A stretch of DNA of 64,000 nt, taken from NCBI RefSeq assembly GCF_054482525.1, contig NZ_CM137006.1. One strand, 5' to 3'. Positions within the stretch are counted from its first letter, which is position 1, and every line of letters begins with the position of its first letter. The notes under the pieces are model-generated. The model was not told the origin of the DNA, searched no databases, and saw only the letters and a program-made list of their open reading frames with translations. This document shows, piece after piece, positions 2,690 through 43,559 of the stretch. The translations under genes were made by a program, and so were the position numbers.

Positions 2690-4255
2690 TTATGCAGTTT
2701 TGGTGCGAATCAGGTAGTCAAAAGCACTCAGAGAGGCTTTGGCACCTTCGCCAGTGGCGATGATGATCTGCTTGTACGGAACCGTCGTACAGTCACCCGC
2801 TGCGAACACGCCTTTCACGTTGGTTTCGCATTTCGCATCAATGATAATCTCGCCCATGCGGTTACGTTCGACTGCGCCTTCGAGCCAGTTGGTGTTCGGC
2901 AGCAGACCAATCTGCACGAAAATACCGGCCAGTTCGATGTTGTGAATATCGCCGCTGACACGATCTCGATATTCCAGACCAATGACTTTGCTGCCGTCGC
3001 CTTTCACTTCCGTAGTTTGCGCATTCAGAATAATGTCGACGTTTTTCAGGCTGCGCAGTTTGTCCTGCAGAACCTGGTCGGCTTTCATTTCTGGCGCAAA
3101 TTCCAGCAGCGTTACGTGCTCAACGATACCCGCCAGGTCGATTGCCGCTTCCACGCCGGAGTTACCGCCGCCGATAACCGCTACGCGTTTGCCTTTAAAC
3201 AGCGGGCCGTCGCAGTGCGGGCAGTAGGTCACGCCTTTGGTGCGATACTGATCTTCGCCCGGAACGTTCATGTTGCGCCATTTTGCACCGGTCGCCACGA
3301 TAATGCTGCGTGCTTTCAGTACCGCGCCAGAAGCTGTTTCAATCTGATGCAGACCACCTTCAACCGCTGCCGGGATCAGTTTGCTGGCGCTCTGGCTGTC
3401 GATCACATCAACGTCGTATTCATCAACGTGAACTTTCAGCGCTCCTGCCAGCTTCTGCCCTTCAGTCTTCGGTACAGAAATGTAGTTTTCGATATCAACG
3501 GTATCGAGGATCTGACCACCAAAACGTTCGCCCATCAGACCAGTACGGATGCCTTTACGTGCGGAGTAAATTGCTGCCGCTGCACCCGCTGGGCCGGAAC
3601 CGACGATTAATACGTCATAAGCATCACGCTTGTTCAGCTCTTCTGCCGCACGTTTTTCCGCGCCAGTATCAATTTTGGCGACGATTTCAGTCAACGTCAT
3701 GCGACCCTGACCAAACTCTTTCCCGTTTACGAATACTGCCGGAACGCCCATCACGTTGCGATCGGTGATTTCGTTCTGGAAGGTACCTCCGTCAATTGCA
3801 GTGTGCTTGATGCGCGGGTTCAGTACGCTCATCAGGTTCAGCGCCTGCACCACATCCGGGCAGTTGTGGCAAGAGAGCGAGTAATAGGTTTCGAATTCAA
3901 AATCACCGTCAATATGGCGAATCTGCTCCAGCAGAGACTGCGCTTCTTTCGACGGATGACCACCGGTCCACAACAACGCCAGTACCAGCGAGGTAAACTC
4001 GTGGCCCAGCGGGGAACCTGCAAAACGTGGCCCCTGGTTAGAACCTGGGTTGGTGATCAGGAAAGACGGCTTACGCACCGGCAAGCTGTTATCTTCTTTA
4101 AAGGTGACTTTGTCTGACAGTTCTGCGATTTCAGCCAACAGTTCCTTGATTTCTGCCGATTTAGCGCTGTCATCCAGCGTGGCAATTAACTCAACAGGCT
4201 TGGTCAATTTCTCAAGGTAAGCCTTGAGTTGAGTTTTCATATTTGTGTCGAGCAT
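2690..4255 (-). CDS. ahpF: Alkyl hydroperoxide reductase subunit F (flavoprotein disulfide reductase)
   Basis: ORF 2690-4285; start at [17 protein letters not shown] gives 521 aa; paired-cysteine and FAD/NAD motifs (GSGPAG, CPHCDG). Confidence 0.95.
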
Positions 4256-4425
4256 GTTTATCTCCTGGGCTTTAAACATCATCATGCAAGCGGCCTCTGC
4301 GGCTACCTGGATGCAGCTTGCATCATGGTGCGGGGAAGAAAATCGGGTGCCGCAGCACCCGAAGAATTAGGTGAATTTCCGAAGTATTTCGCGCCGGAGT
4401 TGGTAGCGCGAAAGACGAAGGAAAT

Positions 4426-4989
4426 TTAGATTTTACCAACCAGGTCCAGAGACGGAGCCAGAGTTGCTTCACCTTCTTTCCATTTAGCCGGGCAAACTTC
4501 ACCTGGGTGAGAAGCTACGTACTGTGCTGCTTTGATTTTACGCAGCAGGTCAGACGCGTCACGGCCAATGCCTTCAGCAGTAACTTCGATTGCCTGGATG
4601 ATACCCTGCGGGTCAACAACGAAGGTCGCACGGTCAGCCAGACCTTCATCTTCACGCATGTTGTCGAAGTTACGGGTCAGGGCGCCAGTCGGGTCGCCGA
4701 TCATCGCATATTTGATTTTAGCGATGGTTTCAGAGCTGCTGTGCCATGCTTTGTGGGTGAAGTGAGTATCGGTAGATACTGCGTATACGTCTACGCCCAG
4801 TTTCTGCAGTTCTTCGTAGTGGTCAGCAACGTCACCCAGTTCGGTCGGGCATACGAAAGTAAAGTCAGCCGGGTAGAAGAAGAAGACGCTCCAGCGGCCT
4901 TCGGTATCTTTTTCGGTGATTTCGATGAATTCGCCGTTTTTGAATGCCTGGTTTTTAAAAGGTTTAATTTTGGTGTTAATCAAGGACAT
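4426..4989 (-). CDS. ahpC: Alkyl hydroperoxide reductase subunit C (2-Cys peroxiredoxin)
   Basis: 187-aa [24 protein letters not shown]...FTFVCPTE... classical AhpC. Confidence 0.95.
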
Positions 4990-5360
4990 CTATACTTCCT
5001 CCGTGTTTTCGATGAGATGTAAGGTAACCAATTTTTGCCGATTCGGCTAATGCGTTTCCATTATCAAATCGATAAGTTTTACCTTACAACCTTCGTAAGA
5101 CAACTTTGTGAACTTTGCACCGCCAGCGGCGATAAAAAGTAAAATGGCCCCCTTTCCAGGTGACCGTGTAATCTGAACTACCCTTTGGTATCTTCAGCGC
5201 CTGCCTGCAGGCTGAGGTGTTGCCCTTACAAATGCAACAACGACATGGATTACAACACCCTCATAAACAAAGGGCAATCACCTGATCTAAGCTCTTACCT
5301 ATGGCAGTGATAGGTTATGCCTTTTACCCGACTTTTGCACTGACTGAAAAGGACAAATTA

Positions 5361-6107
5361 ATGTTAAAAAAGATACTTTTACTGGCTCTGCTTCCTGCAA
5401 TCGCCTTCGCAGAGGAACTTCCTGATCCAGTAAAAGCGATTGAAAAACAGGGTATTACGATCATCAAAACATTCGATGCTCCCGGAGGAATGAAAGGTTA
5501 TCTCGGAAAGTATCAGGATATGGGCGTCACCATCTACCTGACTCCAGATGGTAAGCACGCTATCTCCGGTTACATGTACAACGAGAAAGGTGAAAACCTG
5601 AGTAACACACTTATCGAAAAAGAAATTTACGCACCAGCCGGACGCGAAATGTGGCAACGGATGGAACAATCCCACTGGCTCCTCGACGGTAAAAAAGACG
5701 CGCCGGTCATTGTCTACGTCTTCGCCGATCCGTTCTGCCCATATTGTAAACAGTTCTGGCAGCAGGCTCGCCCGTGGGTTGATTCTGGCAAAGTGCAATT
5801 AAGAACATTGTTGGTTGGCGTTATCAAGCCAGAAAGCCCGGCGACAGCAGCGGCAATTCTTGCCGCCAAAGATCCCGCAAAAACCTGGCAAGAATATGAA
5901 GCCTCTGGTGGCAAGCTTAAGCTAAACGTGCCTGCAAACGTAAGTACAGAGCAAATGAAAGTGTTAAGCGACAACGAAAAACTGATGGACGATCTGGGGG
6001 CAAATGTCACACCAGCTATCTACTACATGAGTAAGGAAAATACGCTGCAACAGGCCGTGGGGTTGCCCGATCAGAAAACGCTTAATATCATTATGGGGAA
6101 TAAATAA
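5361..6107 (+). CDS. dsbG: Periplasmic thiol:disulfide interchange protein DsbG
   Basis: ORF 5301-6107; start at [17 protein letters not shown] (signal peptide) gives 248 aa; CPYC active site present. Confidence 0.9.
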
Positions 6108-6314
6108 AAGATAATTCATGGATGGTTGAAATATATCCCTGTTTTTCAACCATCCTAAAAAAGCATGAATTGCTCGCTCTGCCCTAAGTGGCTGTGCTAT
6201 TTTAGAAAAACTTAACTCTGAGTTAAGCAAAAAAACATAATACAAATAAATACAACAGCAACATTATTGAACAAATGAATGATTTATAGAAGAGATAATA
6301 TAACGGAGTATGTT

Positions 6315-7217
6315 ATGGCGAATCTTTATGACCTAAAAAAATTTGATCTGAATTTACTGGTCATATTTGAGTGCATTTATCAACACCTCAGCATTAGCAA
6401 AGCAGCAGAATCATTATATATAACGCCATCTGCCGTTAGTCAGTCGTTACAACGTTTACGTGCGCAATTTAATGACCCGTTATTCATTCGCTCAGGGAAA
6501 GGTATCGCGCCGACTACGACAGGGTTAAATCTGCATCATCATCTTGAGAAAAATCTCAGAGGCATTGAACAAACGATCAATATTGTTAATAAGTCTGAGC
6601 TGAAGAAAAATTTTATTATCTACGGCCCTCAGCTTATTTCTTGTACTAATAACAACATGCTAATCCGCTGTCTTAGACAAGATACTTCAATCGATATAGA
6701 ATGCCATGACATACTGCTTTCAGCTGAAAATGCCGAAGAACTGTTGGTTCAACGCAAAACTGACCTGGCAATTACACTACAACCAGTAATTAGCCGCTCT
6801 GTCATCTGCATGCCGTTACATACTATTCGCAATTCTCTTATATGTAGCAATAAACATCCTCGTATTACCGATACCAGTAACTATGAACAAATTATCGCCG
6901 AAGAATTCACCTTGTTGATATCTAAATCAGCAGGGATTGACGAAATTCAAATGGACATAGATGAACGTTTTATGAACCGTAAAGTTTCATTTCGCAGTTC
7001 TTCTTTGTTGACGATAATTAATAGTATTTCTGTTACTGACTTATTGGGCATTGTGCCCACCGAACTGTACGATTTACATCGTGATTTTTTGAAGTTACAA
7101 GAGATAAAACTGGAACGACCACTTCCTGCGGTTAAACTTTATATTTCCTATAACAAGGCTTCGTTGAACAACCTTGTCTTCTCACGATTCATAGATCGTT
7201 TAAATGATAGCTTCTGA
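6315..7217 (+). CDS. ybdO: LysR-family transcriptional regulator YbdO (very AT-rich gene)
   Basis: ORF 6279-7217; N-terminal HTH (LNLLVIFECIYQHLSISKAAESLYITPSAVSQSLQRLR); start at MANLYDL gives 300 aa. Confidence 0.8.
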   Translation: MANLYDLKKFDLNLLVIFECIYQHLSISKAAESLYITPSAVSQSLQRLRAQFNDPLFIRSGKGIAPTTTGLNLHHHLEKNLRGIEQTINIVNKSELKKNFIIYGPQLISCTNNNMLIRCLRQDTSIDIECHDILLSAENAEELLVQRKTDLAITLQPVISRSVICMPLHTIRNSLICSNKHPRITDTSNYEQIIAEEFTLLISKSAGIDEIQMDIDERFMNRKVSFRSSSLLTIINSISVTDLLGIVPTELYDLHRDFLKLQEIKLERPLPAVKLYISYNKASLNNLVFSRFIDRLNDSF

Positions 7218-29521: not shown

Positions 29522-29736
29522 TGCGCCTCCTGCAACTGGGTGAAATTCGACGGTGTCAGAGTACGCCAGTGGGCTTCCAGCCACTGCTGGCAGGACGCCT
29601 GTGACTGCGGCTGACACACAACGTCCCAGCCTGCCGGTAAGGCGCATTGTTGCGGCCACAGACTGAATTGCCCCTGCGCATTGCGCAAAATGTAAAACGC
29701 TCCCTGCGGATCATCGAAGGGATTACTGAATGCCAT
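29518..29736 (-). CDS. ybdZ: MbtH-like protein YbdZ
   Basis: Start at MAFSNPFDDPQGAFYILRNAQGQFSLWP (72 aa); stop overlaps entF start. Confidence 0.9.
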   Translation of the reverse strand: MAFSNPFDDPQGAFYILRNAQGQFSLWPQQCALPAGWDVVCQPQSQASCQQWLEAHWRTLTPSNFTQLQEAQ

Positions 29737-29738
29737 AT

Positions 29739-30941
29739 TCAACTCCTGTCATGGAAAAGTGGTTGCCAGAGGTCGATTAGCCCCTGCATCAAGCCACCGC
29801 GCCAACAAAGCGCATCATGTCCGCCGTCAACCTGACGCCAGAAAATGGATTCTTTTATGGGGTGTAATTGCGCATACAGCGCCTGATTGGCCCGCATAAT
29901 CATCGGCTCGCGAATACCCGCTTCCAGCACAATGCGCAGACCTTCGGCGCTAACTTCACCAGCTTTAAGTTGCTCAAGTAAAACACCTTCTTGCTGCCCG
30001 CCCCGATGCGGCCACCAGTACGATCCTGACTGGCTTAATACACAGCCAAAGCGTTCAGGCCAGTGCAGTCCGGCATACAGCGCGGAAAGCCCACCAAAAC
30101 TCTGCCCGGCGACCACGGTGCGATCGGCGCGATCGTTAAAAGGGGCAATAGCTTTCACCAGGGGTAATAACTCTTGCTGTACTGCCAGCCAGAAATCCGC
30201 ATTACACGGCAGTTCGTGGGCGCGGTGCGTGGTGTCGATAGCGTCGATCAACACATACACGGCGGGAGGAAGTTGCCGACGATGGGTCAGCGAAGTTAGC
30301 GCAGGCCAGACGGGCATACTTTGCGCCCAAAATTCGCCATCGAGCAAAACTGCCAGCGGGCGTTCTTCTGCTGTTGCATCGCCGGTGGTAAAAATCCATA
30401 CACGGCGTGAATTTTTCAACCGTTCACTTTTCCAGATAATTTCTTTGGCAGGCGTTTCTGGCGCTTGCGGACAATTCCAACCCGGTTGTAGGGGCGCTTG
30501 CGGCATTTCGAGTGCAGAAACAGCGTGCCCTCGCCCGCCTTTCCAGCTTTGTGGATTCAGCGGATCGGCTATCGCCTGGGGTAATAGTTTTCGCCAGCCT
30601 TCGCGTAATTCGAGGCGATCGGGGGATGGTGCAGAAAAAATGTCATCGCGTTCAGTAGGAATAAAGCAGTAGCTGCCGCGCCAGTTGGCATTGAGTTGTG
30701 TCGTCCACTGCCAAACATCGGTTCCTGCAATTCGCTGCATCGACTGGGGCTGGCTGTTCTGATGGTGATCGGTCACACCAGTGATGTAGACCCATACGCG
30801 CTTTATCGTCGAGTATTCTTCAGAACCTTGGGGATCACGCCACCAGAAAGTGACCTCAAACATTTCGTCATTCAGACGCTGCCATTCCGGGCCATGTTTC
30901 GACTGCCACCAGCTCTCACTTCCTACTTTTAACGCCGTCAC
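29739..30941 (-). CDS. fes: Ferric enterobactin esterase Fes
   Basis: 400-aa ORF with alpha/beta hydrolase C-terminal domain (GQSFGG). Confidence 0.9.
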   Translation of the reverse strand: MTALKVGSESWWQSKHGPEWQRLNDEMFEVTFWWRDPQGSEEYSTIKRVWVYITGVTDHHQNSQPQSMQRIAGTDVWQWTTQLNANWRGSYCFIPTERDDIFSAPSPDRLELREGWRKLLPQAIADPLNPQSWKGGRGHAVSALEMPQAPLQPGWNCPQAPETPAKEIIWKSERLKNSRRVWIFTTGDATAEERPLAVLLDGEFWAQSMPVWPALTSLTHRRQLPPAVYVLIDAIDTTHRAHELPCNADFWLAVQQELLPLVKAIAPFNDRADRTVVAGQSFGGLSALYAGLHWPERFGCVLSQSGSYWWPHRGGQQEGVLLEQLKAGEVSAEGLRIVLEAGIREPMIMRANQALYAQLHPIKESIFWRQVDGGHDALCWRGGLMQGLIDLWQPLFHDRS

Positions 30942-30993
30942 ACCATAACCCCATGTTTACTGTGCAATTTTTCATTGATTGCAGAAATATATT

Positions 30994-31012
30994 GATAATA
31001 TTATTGATAACT
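30994..31012. promoter_or_regulatory. Fur box in fes/fepA bidirectional promoter region
   Basis: gataatattattgataact in the AT-rich divergent intergenic region. Confidence 0.55.
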
Positions 31013-31183
31013 ATTTGCATTTGCAATAGCGTAATGGCGCGCCGTGGGAAGCGCGGACATTAATTAACCAACTGCACTGCGTGTCTTTCAGGATCAAAGG
31101 TTTTCGCGGTAGCGGGATGCGTCGTGTTGATGACGACCATGCCCGACAGTTGCAATTCGTGGCAAAAATGCAGGAATAAAACA

Positions 31184-33424
31184 ATGAACAAGAAGATTCA
31201 TTCCCTGGCCTTGTTGGTCAATCTGGGGATTTATGGGGTAGCACAGGCACAAGAGCCAACCGATACTCCTGTTTCACATGACGATACCATTGTCGTTACC
31301 GCCGCCGAGCAGAACTTGCAGGCGCCTGGCGTTTCGACCATCACCGCAGATGAAATCCGCAAAAACCCGGTTGCCCGCGATGTGTCGGAGATCATCCGTA
31401 CCATGCCAGGCGTTAACCTGACCGGTAACTCCACCAGTGGTCAGCGTGGGAATAACCGACAGATTGATATTCGCGGCATGGGTCCGGAAAACACGCTGAT
31501 TTTGATTGACGGTAAACCGGTAAGCAGCCGTAACTCGGTGCGTCAGGGCTGGCGTGGCGAGCGCGATACCCGTGGTGATACCTCCTGGGTGCCACCTGAA
31601 ATGATTGAACGTATTGAAGTTCTGCGTGGTCCGGCAGCTGCGCGTTATGGCAACGGCGCGGCGGGCGGCGTGGTTAACATCATTACCAAAAAAGGCAGCG
31701 GTGAGTGGCACGGCTCCTGGGACGCTTATTTCAATGCGCCAGAACATAAAGAGGAAGGTGCCACCAAACGCACTAACTTTAGCCTCACCGGTCCGCTGGG
31801 CGACGAATTCAGCTTCCGCTTGTATGGCAACCTCGACAAAACTCAGGCTGACGCGTGGGATATCAACCAGGGCCATCAGTCCGCGCGTGCCGGAACGTAT
31901 GCCACGACGTTACCAGCCGGGCGCGAAGGGGTAATTAACAAAGATATTAATGGCGTGGTGCGCTGGGACTTCGCGCCTCTGCAATCACTCGAACTGGAAG
32001 CGGGCTACAGCCGCCAGGGTAACCTGTATGCGGGCGACACCCAGAACACCAACTCTGACTCCTATACCCGCTCGAAATATGGCGATGAAACCAACCGTCT
32101 GTATCGCCAGAACTACTCGCTGACATGGAACGGCGGCTGGGATAACGGCGTGACCACCAGCAACTGGGTGCAGTACGAACACACCCGTAACTCGCGTATT
32201 CCGGAAGGTCTGGCGGGCGGTACCGAAGGGAAATTTAACGAAAAAGCGACACAGGATTTCGTCGATATCGATCTCGATGACGTGATGCTGCACAGCGAAG
32301 TTAACCTGCCGATTGATTTCCTCGTTAACCAGACGCTGACGCTGGGTACGGAGTGGAATCAGCAGCGGATGAAGGATTTAAGTTCCAACACCCAGGCGCT
32401 CACTGGGACGAATACCGGCGGTGCTATTGATGGCGTGAGTGCCACCGACCGTAGCCCGTATTCAAAAGCAGAAATTTTCTCGCTATTTGCCGAAAACAAT
32501 ATGGAGCTGACTGACAGCACCATCGTAACGCCGGGGCTGCGTTTCGATCATCACAGCATTGTTGGCAATAACTGGAGTCCGGCGCTGAACATCTCGCAAG
32601 GTTTAGGCGATGACTTCACGCTGAAAATGGGCATTGCCCGTGCTTATAAAGCGCCGAGTCTGTACCAGACTAACCCGAACTACATTCTCTACAGTAAAGG
32701 TCAGGGCTGCTATGCCAGCGCGGGCGGCTGCTATCTGCAAGGTAATGATGACCTGAAAGCAGAAACCAGCATCAACAAAGAGATTGGTCTGGAGTTCAAA
32801 CGCGACGGCTGGCTGGCGGGCGTCACCTGGTTCCGTAACGATTATCGCAATAAGATTGAAGCGGGCTATGTGGCTGTAGGGCAAAACGCAGTCGGCACCG
32901 ATCTCTATCAGTGGGATAACGTACCGAAAGCGGTGGTTGAAGGTCTGGAAGGATCGTTAAACGTACCGGTTAGCGAAACGGTGATGTGGACCAATAACAT
33001 CACTTATATGCTGAAGAGTGAAAACAAAACCACGGGCGACCGTTTGTCGATCATCCCGGAGTATACGTTGAACTCAACGCTGAGCTGGCAGGCACGGGAA
33101 GATTTGTCGATGCAAACAACCTTCACCTGGTACGGCAAGCAGCAGCCGAAGAAGTACAACTATAAAGGTCAGCCAGCGGTTGGACCGGAAACCAAAGAAA
33201 TCAGCCCGTACAGCATTGTTGGCCTGAGCGCGACCTGGGATGTAACGAAGAATGTCAGTCTGACCGGCGGCGTGGACAACCTGTTCGACAAACGTTTGTG
33301 GCGTGCGGGTAATGCCCAGACCACAGGCGATCTGGCAGGAGCCAACTATATCGCCGGTGCCGGGGCATATACCTATAACGAGCCGGGACGTACGTGGTAT
33401 ATGAGCATTAATACTCACTTCTGA
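31184..33424 (+). CDS. fepA: TonB-dependent ferric-enterobactin outer-membrane receptor FepA
   Basis: ORF 31124-33424; start at MNKKIHSLALLVNLGIYGVAQA gives 746 aa; TonB box DTIVVTA, C-terminal F. Confidence 0.95.
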   Translation: MNKKIHSLALLVNLGIYGVAQAQEPTDTPVSHDDTIVVTAAEQNLQAPGVSTITADEIRKNPVARDVSEIIRTMPGVNLTGNSTSGQRGNNRQIDIRGMGPENTLILIDGKPVSSRNSVRQGWRGERDTRGDTSWVPPEMIERIEVLRGPAAARYGNGAAGGVVNIITKKGSGEWHGSWDAYFNAPEHKEEGATKRTNFSLTGPLGDEFSFRLYGNLDKTQADAWDINQGHQSARAGTYATTLPAGREGVINKDINGVVRWDFAPLQSLELEAGYSRQGNLYAGDTQNTNSDSYTRSKYGDETNRLYRQNYSLTWNGGWDNGVTTSNWVQYEHTRNSRIPEGLAGGTEGKFNEKATQDFVDIDLDDVMLHSEVNLPIDFLVNQTLTLGTEWNQQRMKDLSSNTQALTGTNTGGAIDGVSATDRSPYSKAEIFSLFAENNMELTDSTIVTPGLRFDHHSIVGNNWSPALNISQGLGDDFTLKMGIARAYKAPSLYQTNPNYILYSKGQGCYASAGGCYLQGNDDLKAETSINKEIGLEFKRDGWLAGVTWFRNDYRNKIEAGYVAVGQNAVGTDLYQWDNVPKAVVEGLEGSLNVPVSETVMWTNNITYMLKSENKTTGDRLSIIPEYTLNSTLSWQAREDLSMQTTFTWYGKQQPKKYNYKGQPAVGPETKEISPYSIVGLSATWDVTKNVSLTGGVDNLFDKRLWRAGNAQTTGDLAGANYIAGAGAYTYNEPGRTWYMSINTHF

Positions 33425-33463
33425 TGCTAACGTCAGATTGTTGACAAAGTGCGCGTCGTTCAT

Positions 33464-33562
33464 GCCGGATGCGGCGTGAACGCCTTATCCGGCCTACAAA
33501 AATCTTGCCAATTCAATATATTGCAGGACCACGTAGGCCTGATAAGCGTAGCGCATCAGGCA
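33464..33562. repeat. REP/BIME palindromic units
   Basis: gccggatgcggcgtgaacgccttatccggcctac and inverted partner gtaggcctgataagcgtagcgcatcaggc. Confidence 0.7.
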
Positions 33563-33598
33563 GTTTTGTGTTTGTCATCATTCTCTAATATGGTCGAC

Positions 33599-34219
33599 AT
33601 GAAAACTACGCATACCGCCCTCCCCTTTGCAGGACATACGCTGCATTTTGTTGAGTTTGATCCGGCGAGTTTTCGCGAGCAGGATTTACTCTGGCTGCCG
33701 CACTACGCGCAACTGCAACACGCTGGACGTAAACGTAAAACAGAGCATTTAGCCGGACGGATCGCTGCAGTTTATGCGCTGCGGGAATATGGCTATAAAT
33801 GTGTGCCCGCAATCGGCGAGCTACGCCAACCTGTGTGGCCTGCGGAGGTATACGGCAGTATTAGCCACTGTGGGGCTACGGCATTAGCCGTGGTATCTCG
33901 TCAACCGATTGGCATTGATATCGAAGAGATTTTCTCTGTACAAACCGCAAGAGAATTGACAAACAACATTATTACACCAGCAGAACACGAGCGACTCGCA
34001 GAATGCGGTTTAACCTTTTCTCTGGCGCTGACACTGGCATTTTCCGCCAAAGAGAGCGCATTTAAGGCAAGCAAGATACAGGCCACTCAAGGTTTTCTGG
34101 ATTATCAGATAATTAGCTGGAATAAACAGCAGATCATCATTCGACTAGAGGATGAGCAGTTTGCTGTGCACTGGCAGATAAAAGAAAAAATAGTCATAAC
34201 GCTGTGCCAACACGATTAA
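33599..34219 (+). CDS. entD: Phosphopantetheinyl transferase EntD
   Basis: ORF 33449-34219; start at MKTTHTALPFAGHTLHF (alternative MVDM 9 bp upstream) gives ~206 aa. Confidence 0.9.
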   Translation: MKTTHTALPFAGHTLHFVEFDPASFREQDLLWLPHYAQLQHAGRKRKTEHLAGRIAAVYALREYGYKCVPAIGELRQPVWPAEVYGSISHCGATALAVVSRQPIGIDIEEIFSVQTARELTNNIITPAEHERLAECGLTFSLALTLAFSAKESAFKASKIQATQGFLDYQIISWNKQQIIIRLEDEQFAVHWQIKEKIVITLCQHD

Positions 34220-34329
34220 TTGACAACATCTGGTACGATTCGCCCGCAGCCATCACTGACCACGGGCGAAAGTGTAAAGCAGGTGCCTTACCATCCTGAC
34301 CTGACAACCGGATATGCGGGGATTACTCC

Positions 34330-35668
34330 CATAAGCGCTAACTTAAGGGTTGAACCATCTGAAGAATGCGACGCCTCGGTGCCTCGTTAAGACGATGCCT
34401 CGCGTTCTTCAATTGCGTTTTGTAGGCTGTCAGGGATACTGTCCCACGAATGGCCACCTGTAAGCTCCAGATGACCATTTTTGTTATTCTCCACAACGAG
34501 TTAGTTCTTCTTTTCGGATCCGGCACTTCTGGGGGGGAAATCCAGCGATGGCTGGATTATGTCGTCAATTAAAAATGCGGCGAGTAGATTAGCAAATATC
34601 CACGCTTTCGCGAGTTCAGGTTCCTTTGCACGCAAAGCATCCAGGTGCAGCAAACTTTTGAGCCGCTTAAAAGCCAGTTCAATTTGCCATCGCAGACGGT
34701 AACAATCAGCCACTTGCTCTGCTGAATATTCATCTTCCGGTAATGATGTTAGCAATAGCACATGGCCCGCTGCTTCCAGCGTTTCCGCCTGAACTACTCG
34801 TCCTTTTCGACGATTCTCGCTGAGCAGTCGGGTTTTACTGATTAATGCTTTTTCGGGAGGAAGTGATACGGCAATGAGACGTGCCGGAAAGGGAGCTCCG
34901 GCTTTTTTATTACCTGAATTGCCTATCATTACAGTGGTTTCACCGTTCTTACCGCAATCCAGCCCGCGCAGAAAACCCATCATGTCAAAGCGCATTCCTT
35001 CTGCAGTTAACCAGCGCAATCCTCGCCAGTGAACCCGGACGATATAATCAGCTTCTCCAAAAGCAAGTGAGCGGATACATTCGGGACGCGAACCGAATCC
35101 CCGGTCAGCAATGCGTATCTCGTCTGCCGTTTGCGCAAATCGGTCCAGCCGTTCAGCGTCTCTGCTGTCGGTTAGCTCAAAATCAGTGAACTGACAGGTA
35201 TGAGGATCATATCCCATATGTAGTCGCCATTCAGCGCTGCCGCCCCCGGGCGCACTGATTGCTGTTCCATCGACAAGACGCAATCTCTTTCCGCTTGTAC
35301 AACCCGTAACTGCGGCGCGTACAGCAAGTGTTTGTGCGGCAAGTATGCCAAACCAGTCGGCGGCATTCCGCAGCCGCTTCAGGAGAGCCACGTCAGATAA
35401 TGTTGCAACGTCATGGAGCTGAGCCCATGCAGTGACTTCACGTAATGACATCCCCCCGGGGCCGTAAGCCAGCCCCAGACGTAGCAGAGTTGCAGCATCA
35501 CGAATTTCGCGGCGGCGGGTTAGAGCCCCGGCATTACGTGCCGAAGTATCCAGTTCTTCGGGCTTACCAATATGGGCCAGAATTGCTGACCAGTTATCGT
35601 GAGAGTAATTCATCGGCACGTTAAATCATATCAGGCGTAATACCACAACCCTTAAGTTAGCGCTTATG
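34330..35668 (-). mobile_element. IS186 (IS4 family), copy 1, transposase on minus strand
   Basis: ~1.34 kb bounded by 23-bp inverted repeats CATAAGCGCTAACTTAAGGGTTG; flanked by ~10-11 bp direct repeat GGATTACTCC (34319-34329 / 35669-35679). Confidence 0.9.
34501..35619 (-). CDS. insL: IS186 transposase
   Basis: 372-aa ORF MPMNYSHDNWSAILAHIGKPEELD..., identical in protein sequence to the ORF at 36231-37349. Confidence 0.95.
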   Translation of the reverse strand: MPMNYSHDNWSAILAHIGKPEELDTSARNAGALTRRREIRDAATLLRLGLAYGPGGMSLREVTAWAQLHDVATLSDVALLKRLRNAADWFGILAAQTLAVRAAVTGCTSGKRLRLVDGTAISAPGGGSAEWRLHMGYDPHTCQFTDFELTDSRDAERLDRFAQTADEIRIADRGFGSRPECIRSLAFGEADYIVRVHWRGLRWLTAEGMRFDMMGFLRGLDCGKNGETTVMIGNSGNKKAGAPFPARLIAVSLPPEKALISKTRLLSENRRKGRVVQAETLEAAGHVLLLTSLPEDEYSAEQVADCYRLRWQIELAFKRLKSLLHLDALRAKEPELAKAWIFANLLAAFLIDDIIQPSLDFPPRSAGSEKKN

Positions 35669-35689
35669 GGATTACTCCCCGCACAACGG

Positions 35690-35842
35690 CTACTTCTTCG
35701 GTTCGTAAGCGAGAACAGCCTTAAACTCAATATTACGTTCCTTCACCGTAAACTCACACAGCGAGTCGCGGACCAGAAGCGTAAATCCCAGCACCGTTAA
35801 ACACAGCACTATGACTGCCACAAGGGCATATTTCGTCAGCAT
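35690..35842 (-). CDS. Hok-family type I toxin, paralog 1
   Basis: 50 aa [50 protein letters not shown]; single TM helix plus conserved C-terminal Hok signature. Confidence 0.85.
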
Positions 35843-35987
35843 GTTTATATTGCCTCCATGCGAAGAAGGGACTACCATCCGAGTTGTTGAGGTTCGGAGT
35901 GGCAGCCCCAGGATTGATAGAAATATCTCCTGGGGCTTCATCTTTCCAGACCTCAGAGTAAACCTGAAACCGGAAAGCTTCAGGCAC
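35754..35987 (-). CDS. Candidate mok-like overlapping frame (modulator of hok translation), copy 1
   Basis: ORF in another frame that starts upstream of hok and ends inside it, as in hok/mok/sok modules; true start uncertain. Confidence 0.35.
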
Positions 35988-36180
35988 CCGCTGTTATCTT
36001 ACCCTTCCTTAGCAAAATAACTGTTTATTTATACAGCTAGTCCTGTTTCGGACTTCTGTTGGCAACACTCGTTATTGCTCGTAAAACGACATCGCCCGCA
36101 GCCATTGCTGACCGCGGGCGAAAGTGTAAAGCAGGTGCCTTACCACCCTGACCTGACAACCGGATATGCGGGGATTACTC

Positions 36181-37520
36181 CCATAAGCGCTAACTTAAGG
36201 GTTGTGGTATTACGCCTGATATGATTTAACGTGCCGATGAATTACTCTCACGATAACTGGTCAGCAATTCTGGCCCATATTGGTAAGCCCGAAGAACTGG
36301 ATACTTCGGCACGTAATGCCGGGGCTCTAACCCGCCGCCGCGAAATTCGTGATGCTGCAACTCTGCTACGTCTGGGGCTGGCTTACGGCCCCGGGGGGAT
36401 GTCATTACGTGAAGTCACTGCATGGGCTCAGCTCCATGACGTTGCAACATTATCTGACGTGGCTCTCCTGAAGCGGCTGCGGAATGCCGCCGACTGGTTT
36501 GGCATACTTGCCGCACAAACACTTGCTGTACGCGCCGCAGTTACGGGTTGTACAAGCGGAAAGAGATTGCGTCTTGTCGATGGAACAGCAATCAGTGCGC
36601 CCGGGGGCGGCAGCGCTGAATGGCGACTACATATGGGATATGATCCTCATACCTGTCAGTTCACTGATTTTGAGCTAACCGACAGCAGAGACGCTGAACG
36701 GCTGGACCGATTTGCGCAAACGGCAGACGAGATACGCATTGCTGACCGGGGATTCGGTTCGCGTCCCGAATGTATCCGCTCACTTGCTTTTGGAGAAGCT
36801 GATTATATCGTCCGGGTTCACTGGCGAGGATTGCGCTGGTTAACTGCAGAAGGAATGCGCTTTGACATGATGGGTTTTCTGCGCGGGCTGGATTGCGGTA
36901 AGAACGGTGAAACCACTGTAATGATAGGCAATTCAGGTAATAAAAAAGCCGGAGCTCCCTTTCCGGCACGTCTCATTGCCGTATCACTTCCTCCCGAAAA
37001 AGCATTAATCAGTAAAACCCGACTGCTCAGCGAGAATCGTCGAAAAGGACGAGTAGTTCAGGCGGAAACGCTGGAAGCAGCGGGCCATGTGCTATTGCTA
37101 ACATCATTACCGGAAGATGAATATTCAGCAGAGCAAGTGGCTGATTGTTACCGTCTGCGATGGCAAATTGAACTGGCTTTTAAGCGGCTCAAAAGTTTGC
37201 TGCACCTGGATGCTTTGCGTGCAAAGGAACCTGAACTCGCGAAAGCGTGGATATTTGCTAATCTACTCGCCGCATTTTTAATTGACGACATAATCCAGCC
37301 ATCGCTGGATTTCCCCCCCAGAAGTGCCGGATCCGAAAAGAAGAACTAACTCGTTGTGGAGAATAACAAAAATGGTCATCTGGAGCTTACAGGTGGCCAT
37401 TCGTGGGACAGTATCCCTGACAGCCTACAAAACGCAATTGAAGAACGCGAGGCATCGTCTTAACGAGGCACCGAGGCGTCGCATTCTTCAGATGGTTCAA
37501 CCCTTAAGTTAGCGCTTATG
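36181..37520 (+). mobile_element. IS186, copy 2, transposase on plus strand (inverted relative to copy 1)
   Basis: Same 23-bp terminal inverted repeats; interior is the reverse complement of copy 1; flanked by GGATTACTCC direct repeat (36170-36180 / 37521-37531). Confidence 0.9.
36231..37349 (+). CDS. insL: IS186 transposase
   Basis: 372-aa ORF identical to the copy at 34501-35619. Confidence 0.95.
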   Translation: MPMNYSHDNWSAILAHIGKPEELDTSARNAGALTRRREIRDAATLLRLGLAYGPGGMSLREVTAWAQLHDVATLSDVALLKRLRNAADWFGILAAQTLAVRAAVTGCTSGKRLRLVDGTAISAPGGGSAEWRLHMGYDPHTCQFTDFELTDSRDAERLDRFAQTADEIRIADRGFGSRPECIRSLAFGEADYIVRVHWRGLRWLTAEGMRFDMMGFLRGLDCGKNGETTVMIGNSGNKKAGAPFPARLIAVSLPPEKALISKTRLLSENRRKGRVVQAETLEAAGHVLLLTSLPEDEYSAEQVADCYRLRWQIELAFKRLKSLLHLDALRAKEPELAKAWIFANLLAAFLIDDIIQPSLDFPPRSAGSEKKN

Positions 37521-37541
37521 GGATTACTCCCCGCACAACGG

Positions 37542-37694
37542 CTACTTCTTCGGTTCGTAAGCGAGAACAGCCTTAAACTCAATATTACGTTCCTTCACCG
37601 TAAACTCACACAGCGAGTCTCCGACCAGAAGCGTAAATCCCAGCACCGTCAAACACAGCACTATGACTGCCGCAAGGGCATATTTCGTCAGCAT
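37542..37694 (-). CDS. hokE: Hok-family type I toxin, paralog 2 (probably the hokE equivalent next to ybdK)
   Basis: 50 aa [50 protein letters not shown]; differs from paralog 1 at two residues (V8A, R25G). Confidence 0.8.
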
Positions 37695-37794
37695 GTTTAT
37701 ATTGCCTCCATGCGAAGAAGGGACTACCATCCAAATTGTTTGGGTTTGGAGTGGCAGCCCCAGGGTTGATAGAAATATCGTCCTGGGGCTTCAT
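37606..37794 (-). CDS. Candidate mok-like overlapping frame, copy 2
   Basis: Out-of-frame ORF overlapping the 5' part of hok paralog 2. Confidence 0.35.
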
Positions 37795-38125
37795 CTTTCC
37801 AGACCTCAGAGTAAACCTGAAACCGGAAAGCTTCAGGCACCCGCCGTTATCTTACCCTTCCTTAGCAAAATGGCTGTTTATTTATACAGTAAGTCCTGTT
37901 TCGGACTTCTCAATCCTCATTTGATCAACTGAAGCTGAACCCGTTTTTTTCTGCATGCCTCAATCGTCAAAATTCTTCGCCACCAGTCCGCACTGCCATA
38001 ACTTGTCATATTGCAAAATGTAGCCAATTTGCTTCAGTCACCATCATCAAAAAAAAACATTCCAGAACTTCCGCATCTCGCCCAGTCGCTCCCACTTCTA
38101 TACTGAATAGAAAACGCCAACATAA

Positions 38126-39253
<1,128 letters not shown>

Positions 39254-39318
39254 GCCGGGAATTGCCTTACAGAAGAATATCCCTGACAATGGTGTTTTAA
39301 CTTACATTTAACAATGTT

Positions 39319-39567
39319 ATGAAACACCCTTTAGAAACCTTGACCACCGCAGCAGGCATTTTGCTGATGGCTTTCCTTTCTTGCCTGCTGCTGCCCGCCC
39401 CCGCACTGGGGCTGACGCTGGCACAAAAACTGGTGACCATGTTCCATCTGATGGATCTTAGCCAGCTTTACACTTTATTGTTTTGTCTGTGGTTTTTAGT
39501 GCTGGGCGCTATTGAGTATTTTGTTCTGCGCTTTATCTGGCGACGCTGGTTCTCGCTGGCGGATTAA
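39319..39567 (+). CDS. ybdJ: Small inner-membrane protein YbdJ (DUF1158)
   Basis: 82-aa two-TM ORF; context. Confidence 0.8.
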
Positions 39568-39631
39568 ACGTCGATTATCGCCGTACTTCGCGGCATACTT
39601 TGCTTATTCTCCTTCGCCTAAAGGAACGTTT

Positions 39632-40000
39632 ATGGATAAGCAATCACTGCGCGAAACGGCGAAACGCCTGGCCCTTGAGTTACCCTTTGTCGAGCTTTGC
39701 TGGCCTTTTGGCCCGGAGTTCGATGTTTTTAAAATTGGCGGCAAGATTTTTATGCTGTCGTCGGAGCTGCGCGGCGTCCCCTTTATCAATCTGAAGTCCG
39801 ATCCACAAAAATCCCTGTTAAATCAGCAAATATACCCGAGCATCAAGCCAGGGTATCACATGAATAAAAAGCACTGGATTTCAGTGTATCCCGGCGAGGA
39901 AATCTCCGAAGCGTTACTTCGCGATCTGATCAACGATTCGTGGAATCTGGTGGTTGATGGTCTGGCTAAACGCGATCAAAAAAGAGTGCGTCCAGGCTAA
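39632..40000 (+). CDS. ybdF: YbdF (DUF419 family)
   Basis: ORF 39512-40000; start at [19 protein letters not shown] gives 122 aa. Confidence 0.85.
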
Positions 40001-40093
40001 AGCGGAAATCTATAGCGCATTTTTCTCGCTTACCATTTCTCGTTGAACCTTGTAATCTGCTGGCACGCAAAATTACTTTCACATGGAGTCTTT

Positions 40094-40747
40094 ATGGATA
40101 TCATTTCTGTCGCCTTAAAGCGTCATTCCACTAAGGCATTTGATGCCAGCAAAAAACTTACCCCGGAACAGGCCGAGCAGATCAAAACTCTCCTGCAATA
40201 CAGCCCATCCAGCACCAACTCCCAGCCATGGCATTTTATTGTTGCCAGCACGGAAGAAGGTAAAGCGCGTGTTGCCAAATCCGCTGCCGATAATTACGTG
40301 TTCAACGAGCGTAAAATACTTGATGCCTCGCACGTCGTGGTGTTCTGTGCAAAAACCGCGATGGACGATGCCTGGCTGAAGCTGGTTGTTGACCAGGAAG
40401 ATGCCGATGGCCGCTTTGCCACGCCGGAAGCGAAAGCCGCGAACGATAAAGGTCGCAAGTTCTTCGCCGATATGCACCGTAAAGATCTGCATGATGATGC
40501 GCAGTGGATGGCAAAACAGGTTTATCTCAACGTCGGTAACTTCCTGCTCGGCGTGGCGGCTCTGGGTCTGGACGCGGTGCCCATCGAAGGTTTTGACGCC
40601 GCCATCCTCGATGAAGAATTTGGTCTGAAAGAGAAAGGCTACACCAGTCTGGTGGTTGTTCCGGTAGGTCATCACAGCGTTGAAGATTTTAACGCTACGC
40701 TGCCGAAATCTCGTCTGCCGCAAAACATCACCTTAACCGAAGTGTAA
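40094..40747 (+). CDS. nfsB: Oxygen-insensitive NAD(P)H nitroreductase NfsB
   Basis: ORF 40043-40747; start at [17 protein letters not shown] gives 217 aa. Confidence 0.95.
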
Positions 40748-40756
40748 TTCTCTCTT

Positions 40757-40781
40757 GCCGGGCATCTGCCCGGCTATTTCC
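40757..40781 (+). terminator. Candidate terminator after nfsB
   Basis: Hairpin gccgggcatctgcccggc followed by T-rich tatttcc. Confidence 0.4.
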
Positions 40782-40806
40782 CCTCAGATTCTCCTGATTT
40801 GCATAA

Positions 40807-42102
<1,296 letters not shown>

Positions 42103-42103
42103 T

Positions 42104-42143
42104 TAAAAAAACCGCTCTCATCGAATGGATGAGAGCGGTTTCG
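42104..42143. terminator. Bidirectional rho-independent terminator between convergent mscM and pheP
   Basis: AAAAAAA-ccgctctcatc-gaatg-gatgagagcgg-TTTCGG perfect hairpin. Confidence 0.6.
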
Positions 42144-42182
42144 GATGGTTGACATCATTTTGTCGGATACGGCGCGAATGCC

Positions 42183-43559
42183 TTATTTCCGACGCAGCGT
42201 TTTAAACGCTACAAACAGGAATACAATCCACACTGGCAGCAGAATCGCTGACAAGCGCATATCATCCATCGTGCACATCAGCAGCAAAATCATGCCGAGG
42301 AAGGCGATGCAAAGATAGTTGCCGAACGGATAGAGCAGCGCCTTAAACTGTGTTTCACGTCCCTGACGTCGCATCGCCGCGCGAAAACGCAGATGCGCCA
42401 GGCAGATCATAATCCAGTTCAATAGCAGCGTTGCTACCACCAGCGCCATCAGCAGACCAAACGCTTTTTGCGGCAGCAGATAGTTGATTAACACCACCAG
42501 CGAAGTGATGGCTCCGGAAAGCATCAGCGAGTTAATCGGCACGCCGCGACGGCTGACGCGAGTCAAAAACTTCGGCGCATTACCCTGCACAGAAAGGCCA
42601 AACAGCATGCGGCTGTTAGAGTAAACCCCGCTGTTATACACCGATAATGATGCTACCAGAATGACGAAGTTCAGCGCAGAAGCCACCACGTTGCTGTCGA
42701 GATTATGGAAAATCATCACAAACGGGCTACTGTTGGATTTCACTTCCACCCACGGATAGAGTGCCAGTAAAACCACCAGTGAACCGATGTAAAACAGCAG
42801 GATGCGATACACCACCTGATTCACTGCTTTAGGGATGCTTTTTTCCGGAGCGCGCGCTTCAGCGGCAGTAATCCCAATCAGCTCCAGCCCGCCGAAGGAG
42901 AACATAATCACCGCCAGCGACAAAATCAGCCCATTCCAGCCGGTGGCAAAAAAACCACCGTAGCGCCAGAGGTTATCGATACTGGCTTTCTCGCCGCCGT
43001 GACCAGAAAACAGCAGCCACAGACCAAAGCCGATCATGCCGATGATCGCCAGCACTTTAATCAGCGCAAACCAGAACTCGGTTTCGCCATATAAGCGCAC
43101 GTTCACCAGGTTAACGGCGTTGATGATAATAAAGAAGGCGGCAGCCCAAATCCACGTTGGAACATCCGGGAACCAGTACTGCATATAGATGCCCGCAGCG
43201 GTCAGCTCTGCCATTCCCACCAGCACGAACATTACCCAGTAGTTCCAGCCAGAGAGGAAGCCCGCAAACGGTCCCCAGTATTTATAGGCAAAGTGGGCAA
43301 ATGAACCGGATACCGGCTCCTCAACCACCATTTCGCCAAGCTGGCGCATAATCAGGAAAGCGATGATCCCGGCGACGCCGTAGCCCAGCAATACAGCCGG
43401 ACCCGCCATCTGAATCGCCGGGCCAATGCCAAGAAACAGACCAGTACCAATTGCGCCACCCAGCGCAATCAGTTGAATATGACGGTTATGTAATCCGCGA
43501 TGAAGCGTCGGCTCTTGATTCGACGCAGTATCTTCCGATACGGTTGACGCGTTTTTCAC
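42183..43559 (-). CDS. pheP: Phenylalanine-specific permease PheP (APC family)
   Basis: ORF 42183-43595; GTG start at (V)KNASTVSEDTASNQEPTLHRGL gives 458 aa. Confidence 0.95.
   Translation of the reverse strand: MKNASTVSEDTASNQEPTLHRGLHNRHIQLIALGGAIGTGLFLGIGPAIQMAGPAVLLGYGVAGIIAFLIMRQLGEMVVEEPVSGSFAHFAYKYWGPFAGFLSGWNYWVMFVLVGMAELTAAGIYMQYWFPDVPTWIWAAAFFIIINAVNLVNVRLYGETEFWFALIKVLAIIGMIGFGLWLLFSGHGGEKASIDNLWRYGGFFATGWNGLILSLAVIMFSFGGLELIGITAAEARAPEKSIPKAVNQVVYRILLFYIGSLVVLLALYPWVEVKSNSSPFVMIFHNLDSNVVASALNFVILVASLSVYNSGVYSNSRMLFGLSVQGNAPKFLTRVSRRGVPINSLMLSGAITSLVVLINYLLPQKAFGLLMALVVATLLLNWIMICLAHLRFRAAMRRQGRETQFKALLYPFGNYLCIAFLGMILLLMCTMDDMRLSAILLPVWIVFLFVAFKTLRRK

Follow-up and report, generated by a model that had tools for sequence, protein, structure and literature searches.

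Tn10 with IS10 and Tn5 with IS50 are composite transposons built from insertion sequence (IS) elements of the IS4 family. For IS186, SaiSree et al. are said to have described in 2001 a hot spot at the promoter of lon in Escherichia coli B, with a target consisting of a G run, N and a C run. IS186 has also been reported to prefer GC-rich sites, the cas3-cysH region included (PMC3903273), and its insertion downstream of gef/hokC has been reported to disrupt a fold-back element (PMC3562002). The present analysis concerns a 64,000-nt stretch of E. coli DNA from contig NZ_CM137006.1 (hereafter the window; positions are window coordinates unless given for another genome or a query), in which two inverted IS186 copies lie between entD and ybdK, in a fepA-entD...ybdK context, and interrupt tandem hokE toxin genes. 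We assign a probability of roughly 0.85 to the interpretation that IS186 recently and independently hit the hairpins of both hokE units, generating a flippable segment and a composite transposon rather than a programmed switch.

IS186 insertions in two tandem hokE units

The entD-ybdK interval contains a tandem pair of chromosomal type I toxin-antitoxin units of the hokE/sokE kind, and a GC-rich hairpin follows hok in both. In the proposed scenario, IS186 inserted into the two hairpins separately, with a 10-bp duplication each time and opposite orientations by chance; either insertion parts the hok open reading frame (ORF) from the 3' portion of its mRNA. Together the copies form a perfect inverted repeat of 1,339 bp, which would allow the 513-bp segment between them to flip passively, and the outer IS186 ends would define a 3,191-bp composite transposon carrying hokE-1 that may move to the matching hairpin at a different hok locus. 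What underlies the pair, in this view, is the preference of IS186 for a hairpin conserved in hok 3' untranslated regions (UTRs); the pair results passively from two hits and serves no regulatory purpose. The IS186/hokE region lies between the end of entD at 34219 and the start of ybdK at 38135, and each of its two tandem hokE units consists of an A part and a B part. The features are as follows.

34240-34329, minus strand: A1, the 3' end of the hokE-1 transcription unit, split from its ORF by IS186 copy 1; about 96% identical to A2 and contiguous with B1 in the IS-free genome PCN033
34320-34329 (left) and 35669-35678 (right), unstranded: target-site duplication GGATTACTCC of IS186 copy 1; a single copy at the PCN033 empty site
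34330-35668, minus strand: IS186 copy 1, 1,339 bp, boundaries from junction reading
34501-35619, minus strand: transposase ORF of IS186 copy 1, 372 aa
35669-36181, unstranded: central segment C, 513 bp, the putative invertible piece and passenger of the candidate composite transposon
35669-36057: B1, the rest of unit 1
35690-35842, minus strand: hokE-1 ORF, 50 aa, Pfam HOK_GEF (E=3.3e-10), stop codon 22 bp from the IS186 end
35754-35987, minus strand: mok-like frame of unit 1, 77 aa, starting upstream of hok and ending inside hok
35834-35989, minus strand: hok-1 leader or sok-complementary region, Rfam RF01794 (sok), 84 bits against a gathering score of 59
36058-36091: linker, 34 bp
36092-36181, minus strand: A2, the 3' end of the hokE-2 unit, split from hokE-2 by IS186 copy 2; a direct repeat of A1, contiguous with B2 in PCN033
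36092-36121, minus strand: terminator-like hairpin within A2, from the promoter and terminator scan
36172-36181 (left) and 37521-37530 (right), unstranded: target-site duplication GGATTACTCC of IS186 copy 2, from junction reading
36182-37520, plus strand: IS186 copy 2, 1,339 bp, boundaries from junction reading
36231-37349, plus strand: transposase ORF of IS186 copy 2, 372 aa
37521-37910, minus strand: B2 with hokE paralog 2, about 96% identical to B1, HOK_GEF match
37542-37694, minus strand: hokE-2 ORF, 50 aa, Pfam HOK_GEF
37686-37842, minus strand: hok-2 leader or sok region, Rfam sok, 82.4 bits against a gathering score of 59

Each IS186 copy occupies the target GCGGGG-ATTACT-CCCCGC, 22 bp past the hok stop codon and exactly between an A and a B part, and is flanked by the 10-bp duplication GGATTACTCC, within GCGGGGATTACTCCCCGC. 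When uninterrupted, this target is predicted to give the hok mRNA strand a strong GC hairpin (z = -4.6 and -4.0), and the lone hokE unit of K-12 is interrupted by IS186 at this very position. The hok hairpin thus fits a known type of IS186 insertion hot spot.

The age of the insertions can be judged from empty sites. PCN033 matches the window at 100% over 29581-34330 and over the middle segment and at 99.98% over 37520-42530, with both targets intact and empty, each containing a single GGATTACTCC. A 2,903-bp backbone query, reconstructed from the window without IS186, was matched at 100.0% in PCN033, SCU-102 and 19KM1776 and at 99.5-99.6% in about 27 further genomes, all of which are IS-free tandems. 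The tandem therefore predates the IS copies in this lineage, and the two insertions are recent and independent.

The two copies are exact reverse complements of each other according to a script check, and both transposase genes point outwards from the enclosed segment. All features tested for IS186 as an IS4-family element were found, namely terminal repeats, length, a DDE ORF, sequence identity and a duplication in a GC-rich target: the window has four occurrences of the 23-bp terminal repeat CATAAGCGCTAACTTAAGGGTTG, one at each IS186 end (0 expected by chance), the 372-aa ORF matches the DDE_Tnp_1 transposase domain (E=1.6e-26), and the element is identical to K-12 IS186B at 1339/1339 positions. 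The identity of the two window copies is uninformative because every intact IS186 examined is identical, with 0 mismatches to the window copy at 12 loci in 11 strains including K-12; gene conversion as the cause of this identity was rejected on the same grounds. The sole exceptions are two copies in FDAARGOS_349 (O104:H4), with lengths of 1,338 and 1,335 bp and a frameshift annotation; in C227-11, of the same clone, the element is an intact 1,339 bp, and the frameshifts are probably homopolymer sequencing errors.

A repeat search detected inverted arms at 34315-35683 and 36167-37535, of 1,369 nt each and 483 nt apart, in which the additional 15 nt per arm are the near-palindromic target, with 2 mismatches per end. 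The sequence-only reading of this DNA had described two inverted IS186 copies of about 1.34 kb around hok paralog 1 with its mok frame and leader, and its coordinates proved accurate within 1-2 bases. The directly repeated, diverged flanks that it mentioned also exist: the repeats are about 96% identical at a period of 1,852 bp, as established by the repeat search and by comparison with PCN033. What it overlooked were the two independent hits on a target of the hot-spot type, in each hok unit, and the apparent behavior of the block as a composite transposon.

With regard to the toxin units, the B parts carry a 50-aa Hok ORF, an overlapping mok-like frame and a leader matching Rfam sok. The components expected of a hok/sok type I toxin-antitoxin system, i.e., Hok/Gef ORFs, a mok frame and a sok-complementary leader, were thus found, but an mRNA 3' end that is intact and contiguous with the ORF is lacking in either unit, as 1,339 bp of IS186 separate the A part from the hok ORF in each. 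Both hokE loci are, by their sequence, interrupted members of the family. Segment C encloses, besides hokE-1, the severed 3' end of the neighboring unit (36092-36181). Both RF01794 matches (35834-35989 and 37686-37842) lie on the hok mRNA strand, and K-12 sokE is annotated antisense to the hokE leader; the match marks the leader or sok-complementary region, not the antisense RNA strand.

Arrangements of the entD-ybdK interval in E. coli genomes

A total of 5,426 complete E. coli genomes were searched. The native inverted-pair form was found in 53 genomes at a coverage of at least 80%, a figure that joins non-collinear pieces and is not diagnostic of arrangement; single-piece matches and fetched loci were used for that purpose, and counts per arrangement class are approximate. 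A flipped query, in which 35669-36181 was reverse-complemented, matched SW070910, c1-17 and O111:H8 SF26 102-1 in one piece at 100% coverage, and 2017-02-2CC in one piece only to position 4011, where the ybdK-side flank differs. Two near-identical genome pairs are especially informative. SW070910 and SW071620, both from one wastewater study, are identical over 10,313 bp except for 4773-5278, which is exactly reverse-complemented. Similarly, a flipped query of the opposite configuration from O104:H4 C227-11 matched SCPM-O-B-9427 at 100.0% in one piece, and these two genomes are identical over 10,137 bp except for 4774-5280, again exactly reverse-complemented. VTB97432v, ZH177, TUM1857 and FCI23 are likewise flipped, giving about 9 flipped strains among the 53 inverted-pair assemblies.

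These comparisons support the view that the segment between inverted IS186 pairs inverts at this locus in relatives of the window's strain, as the sequence-only reading had anticipated. Homologous recombination between the IS copies is the most likely mechanism, since the interval contains no site-specific recombinase and the repeats are whole IS copies; a survey of the ORF list combined with a domain search found no site-specific recombinase gene in the interval, where only DDE transposases, hok and mok are encoded. As the arms do not differ over their 1,339 bp, hokE-1 meets one and the same IS186 end whichever way it points, so the flip is expected to be neutral and should not act as a switch.

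All four IS186 orientation combinations were observed. With the window's own configuration written as (-,+), (-,+) pairs occur in PKF11 and 20.1 and a (+,-) pair in O104:H4, in backgrounds other than that of the window, and (+,+) pairs occur in TUM18780, ECOCN22 and IPCEC48. GPEC403-625 (+,-) and VTB96933v (-,-) have a middle segment with 0 mismatches to that of the window, and three different double-IS states thus share it. The junction between segment C and IS186 was found in plus orientation in 73 genomes and in minus orientation in about 101, some of the latter confounded by two-piece matches. Such a diversity would be the expected product of repeated independent hits on two hot spots. It had been expected that direct-orientation pairs would be absent, as IS-IS recombination would collapse them to a K-12-like unit; the existence of (+,+) and (-,-) pairs led to the rejection of this expectation. 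In GPEC403-625, the second IS186 (4733-6081) has GGATTACTCC on the left and its reverse complement GGAGTAATCC on the right in an otherwise native flank, possibly through gene conversion from the outer flank of the partner copy across the extended inverted repeat, or as a polishing artefact.

The earlier suspicion of a structural-variation hotspot was also borne out, and comparison across isolates revealed multiple arrangements rather than one fixed arrangement: the interval holds one, two or three hokE units and zero, one or two IS186 copies, the latter in all four orientation combinations, together with IS150 insertions. Locus states in an evenly spaced population sample of 59 chromosomes, with approximate counts, were as follows.

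IS-free tandem: about 26 of 59
Single unit without IS: about 10 of 59
Single unit with IS186 (K-12 type): about 10 of 59
Variants with IS150: about 8 of 59
Tandem with one IS186: about 1 of 59

GPEC673 has hokE in three tandem units between entD and ybdK (3687-4871), and three intact IS186 targets lie there at a spacing of 503-504 bp, which implies that the array expands as well as contracts. The range of one to three units fits unequal exchange between the 96%-identical units, and deletion by recombination between the 96%-identical flanks is plausible. In K-12, the single unit resembles A1 toward entD and B2 toward ybdK, a structure that an insertion into a single unit, a deletion between B parts and a collapsed direct IS pair would explain equally well.

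In several unrelated genomes, IS150 lies between the ybdK-proximal hokE and ybdK, often together with IS186 (e.g., M217, H6 and IPCEC48, 5843-7212); in the 59-chromosome sample, IS150-bearing variants have a locus span of about 5.2 kb, and this position is apparently another site of recurrent insertion in the interval. In BL21(RP), derived from a B strain, the IS-free query finds a match only for its fepA-entD side (positions 1-1704), suggesting that the hokE-ybdK side is deleted or rearranged. The fepA-entD spacer itself (33453-33540) matches Rfam ES036 above and naRNA4 below the gathering score and looks like a repetitive extragenic palindromic (REP)-type repeat. The sequence-only reading had further proposed that transposase read-out could affect entD or ybdK, a suggestion that found no support: a consensus scan of the interval detected no promoter-like sites, and terminator-like sites were not above the shuffled background, the only result picked out being the hok terminator-like hairpin in A2.

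A copy of the block at cas3-cysH

In strain 20.1, the flipped query gave a second match between cas3 and cysH, where many E. coli have a single hok locus (PMC3903273). The order there is a flank ending in GCGG, GGTTTTACCC, IS186(-), reversed segment C, IS186(+), GGTTTTACCC, and CCGC with the other flank. Its middle matches the segment at that genome's own entD locus at 513/513 positions, linker included, and keeps the entD-type inner duplications GGATTGCTCC. The same structure is present in 118C_1_fosA3. When the empty site was reconstructed with one GGTTTTACCC, it was contiguous at 100% identity in other genomes and matched 2,238 genomes at a coverage of at least 80%, by the same joined measure as above. 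Judged from these junctions, the cas3-cysH copy bears the signature of a 3,191-bp composite transposition via the outer IS186 ends, with a new 10-bp duplication. The window has this donor configuration, (-,+), with two IS copies flanking a passenger and outer 23-bp repeats intact at 34330 and 37520; movement of the block with a new duplication was found in relatives only, namely 20.1 and 118C_1_fosA3.

Two other routes to this structure were considered and rejected. Integration of a circle of segment C and IS into a solo IS186 at cas3-cysH would yield direct, not inverted, IS copies. Two independent insertions around a resident second hok unit conflict with the 513/513 identity, the linker and the entD-type duplications, and also with the contiguity of the empty site in other genomes.

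On plasmids NZ_CP110860.1 (111530-112318), NZ_CP137697.1 and CP061260.1, an IS186 end is joined to a chromosomal-type hokE unit (789 bp, 97-98% identity). Thus, IS186-linked hokE DNA has reached plasmids, though not as the full composite.

A bolder and rather doubtful idea is that IS186-hokE-IS186 might be an active, self-targeting composite transposon that homes to other hok loci through the preference of IS186 for the conserved GC hairpin in hok 3' UTRs. If so, the toxin gene would be carried along and a hok unit flanked by IS copies would be placed beside the resident one, which could be one way in which chromosomal hok paralogs of E. coli have multiplied and been shuffled.

Alternative explanations and related systems

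Among the alternatives, the one that survives best, while still improbable, is that the structure or its alternative orientations are an assembly artefact of repeat resolution. Short reads cannot orient a 513-bp unit between 1.3-kb perfect inverted repeats, and both the one-sided, reverse-complemented duplication of GPEC403-625, which could be a polishing error, and the frameshifted 1,338- and 1,335-bp copies of FDAARGOS_349 speak for it. Against this stand the clean 10-bp duplications that mark every junction, the recurrence of the arrangement in 53 independent complete genomes, the roughly 9 flipped strains from different studies, and the cas3-cysH composite in two assemblies from Belgium and Japan; moreover, complete circular chromosomes imply long reads spanning 3.2 kb.

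It is less probable still that the locus originated in a single event, in which a pre-formed IS186-C-IS186 composite entered one hokE unit and created an apparent tandem. Composite transposition into a hok hairpin does occur, and an insertion of the right orientation into one unit would give the exact order A1, IS, B1-linker-A2, IS, B2; nevertheless, PCN033, SCU-102 and 19KM1776 contain the IS-free tandem with a 0-mismatch middle and identical flanks, and all four junctions bear the lineage's own target variant GGATTACTCC. The least credible possibility is a programmed invertible switch like fimS or Hin, by which a flip turns hokE-1 or a neighbor on or off: both orientations do occur in near-clonal genomes and the segment contains the hok promoter and leader, but neither a dedicated recombinase nor a change of neighboring sequence with orientation, as in inversion of the fimS or Hin/Gin type, was found, the only enzymes encoded in the interval are the two DDE transposases, the inverted repeats are whole recent IS copies absent from the closest relatives, the same 1,339 bp are met in either orientation, and direct-orientation pairs, which are unable to invert, also exist at the locus.

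Several points weigh against our preferred interpretation of two independent hits yielding a flippable segment and a composite transposon. The evidence for inversion and transposition comes from relatives, not from the window's own strain, and some of the flipped orientations in public assemblies could be a choice of the assembler, given a 513-bp unit between 1.3-kb repeats. As only about one-sixth of the inverted-pair strains are flipped, inversion is not fast relative to the age of the lineage. A single composite-transposition event was seen, in 2 of the 5,426 genomes, and a search for the composite core on plasmids found none. In addition, the effect of the IS186 insertions on hokE expression is a prediction from sequence, and the mechanism of recombination, RecA-dependent as against transposase-mediated, is one that we infer.

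All mechanisms involved are already known, no new one is revealed and there is no sign that the inversion regulates anything; the added finding is that the block transposed as a composite carrying hokE, and the searchable literature yielded no earlier description of hokE carried by an IS186 composite. The locus illustrates how one small region can give rise to repeated structural variation, with a hairpin in a toxin 3' UTR doubling as an IS186 landing pad that is struck repeatedly, in either orientation and in each tandem copy, and with IS pairs that invert DNA and can carry a toxin gene elsewhere. In practical terms, assembly and variant calling can easily go wrong in the interval, as orientation and copy number differ between near-identical isolates, and the interval is also a convenient natural marker of IS186 activity.

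Compared with related systems, the interval shares with inversions between inverted IS or rRNA copies in bacterial chromosomes the exact reverse-complementation and the long perfect inverted repeats, and differs in the very small size of the segment (513 bp) and the absence of an apparent functional effect. With the lon-promoter hot spot, it reportedly shares a GC-rich palindromic GGGG-N6-CCCC target and the recurrence of independent insertions at the exact same site in both orientations, whereas the target here is a hairpin within a toxin mRNA's 3' UTR that occurs in two tandem copies and recurs in paralogous hok loci elsewhere in the genome. Like Tn10/IS10 and Tn5/IS50, it combines an inverted IS pair flanking a passenger with movement as a unit and a new target duplication; unlike them, its passenger is a truncated hokE locus with a fragment of its neighbor rather than a resistance gene, and one movement has been seen. 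The closest counterparts are hokE/IS186B and hokC(gef)/IS186A of K-12, which share the IS (1339/1339), its position, the hairpin target, the duplication and the expected consequence, loss of the 3' fold-back element (PMC3562002). K-12, however, has one hokE unit with one IS copy, whereas in the window two tandem units have each been struck in opposite orientations, and it is these insertions in both units that, unlike in K-12, would create an invertible segment and a potential composite transposon.

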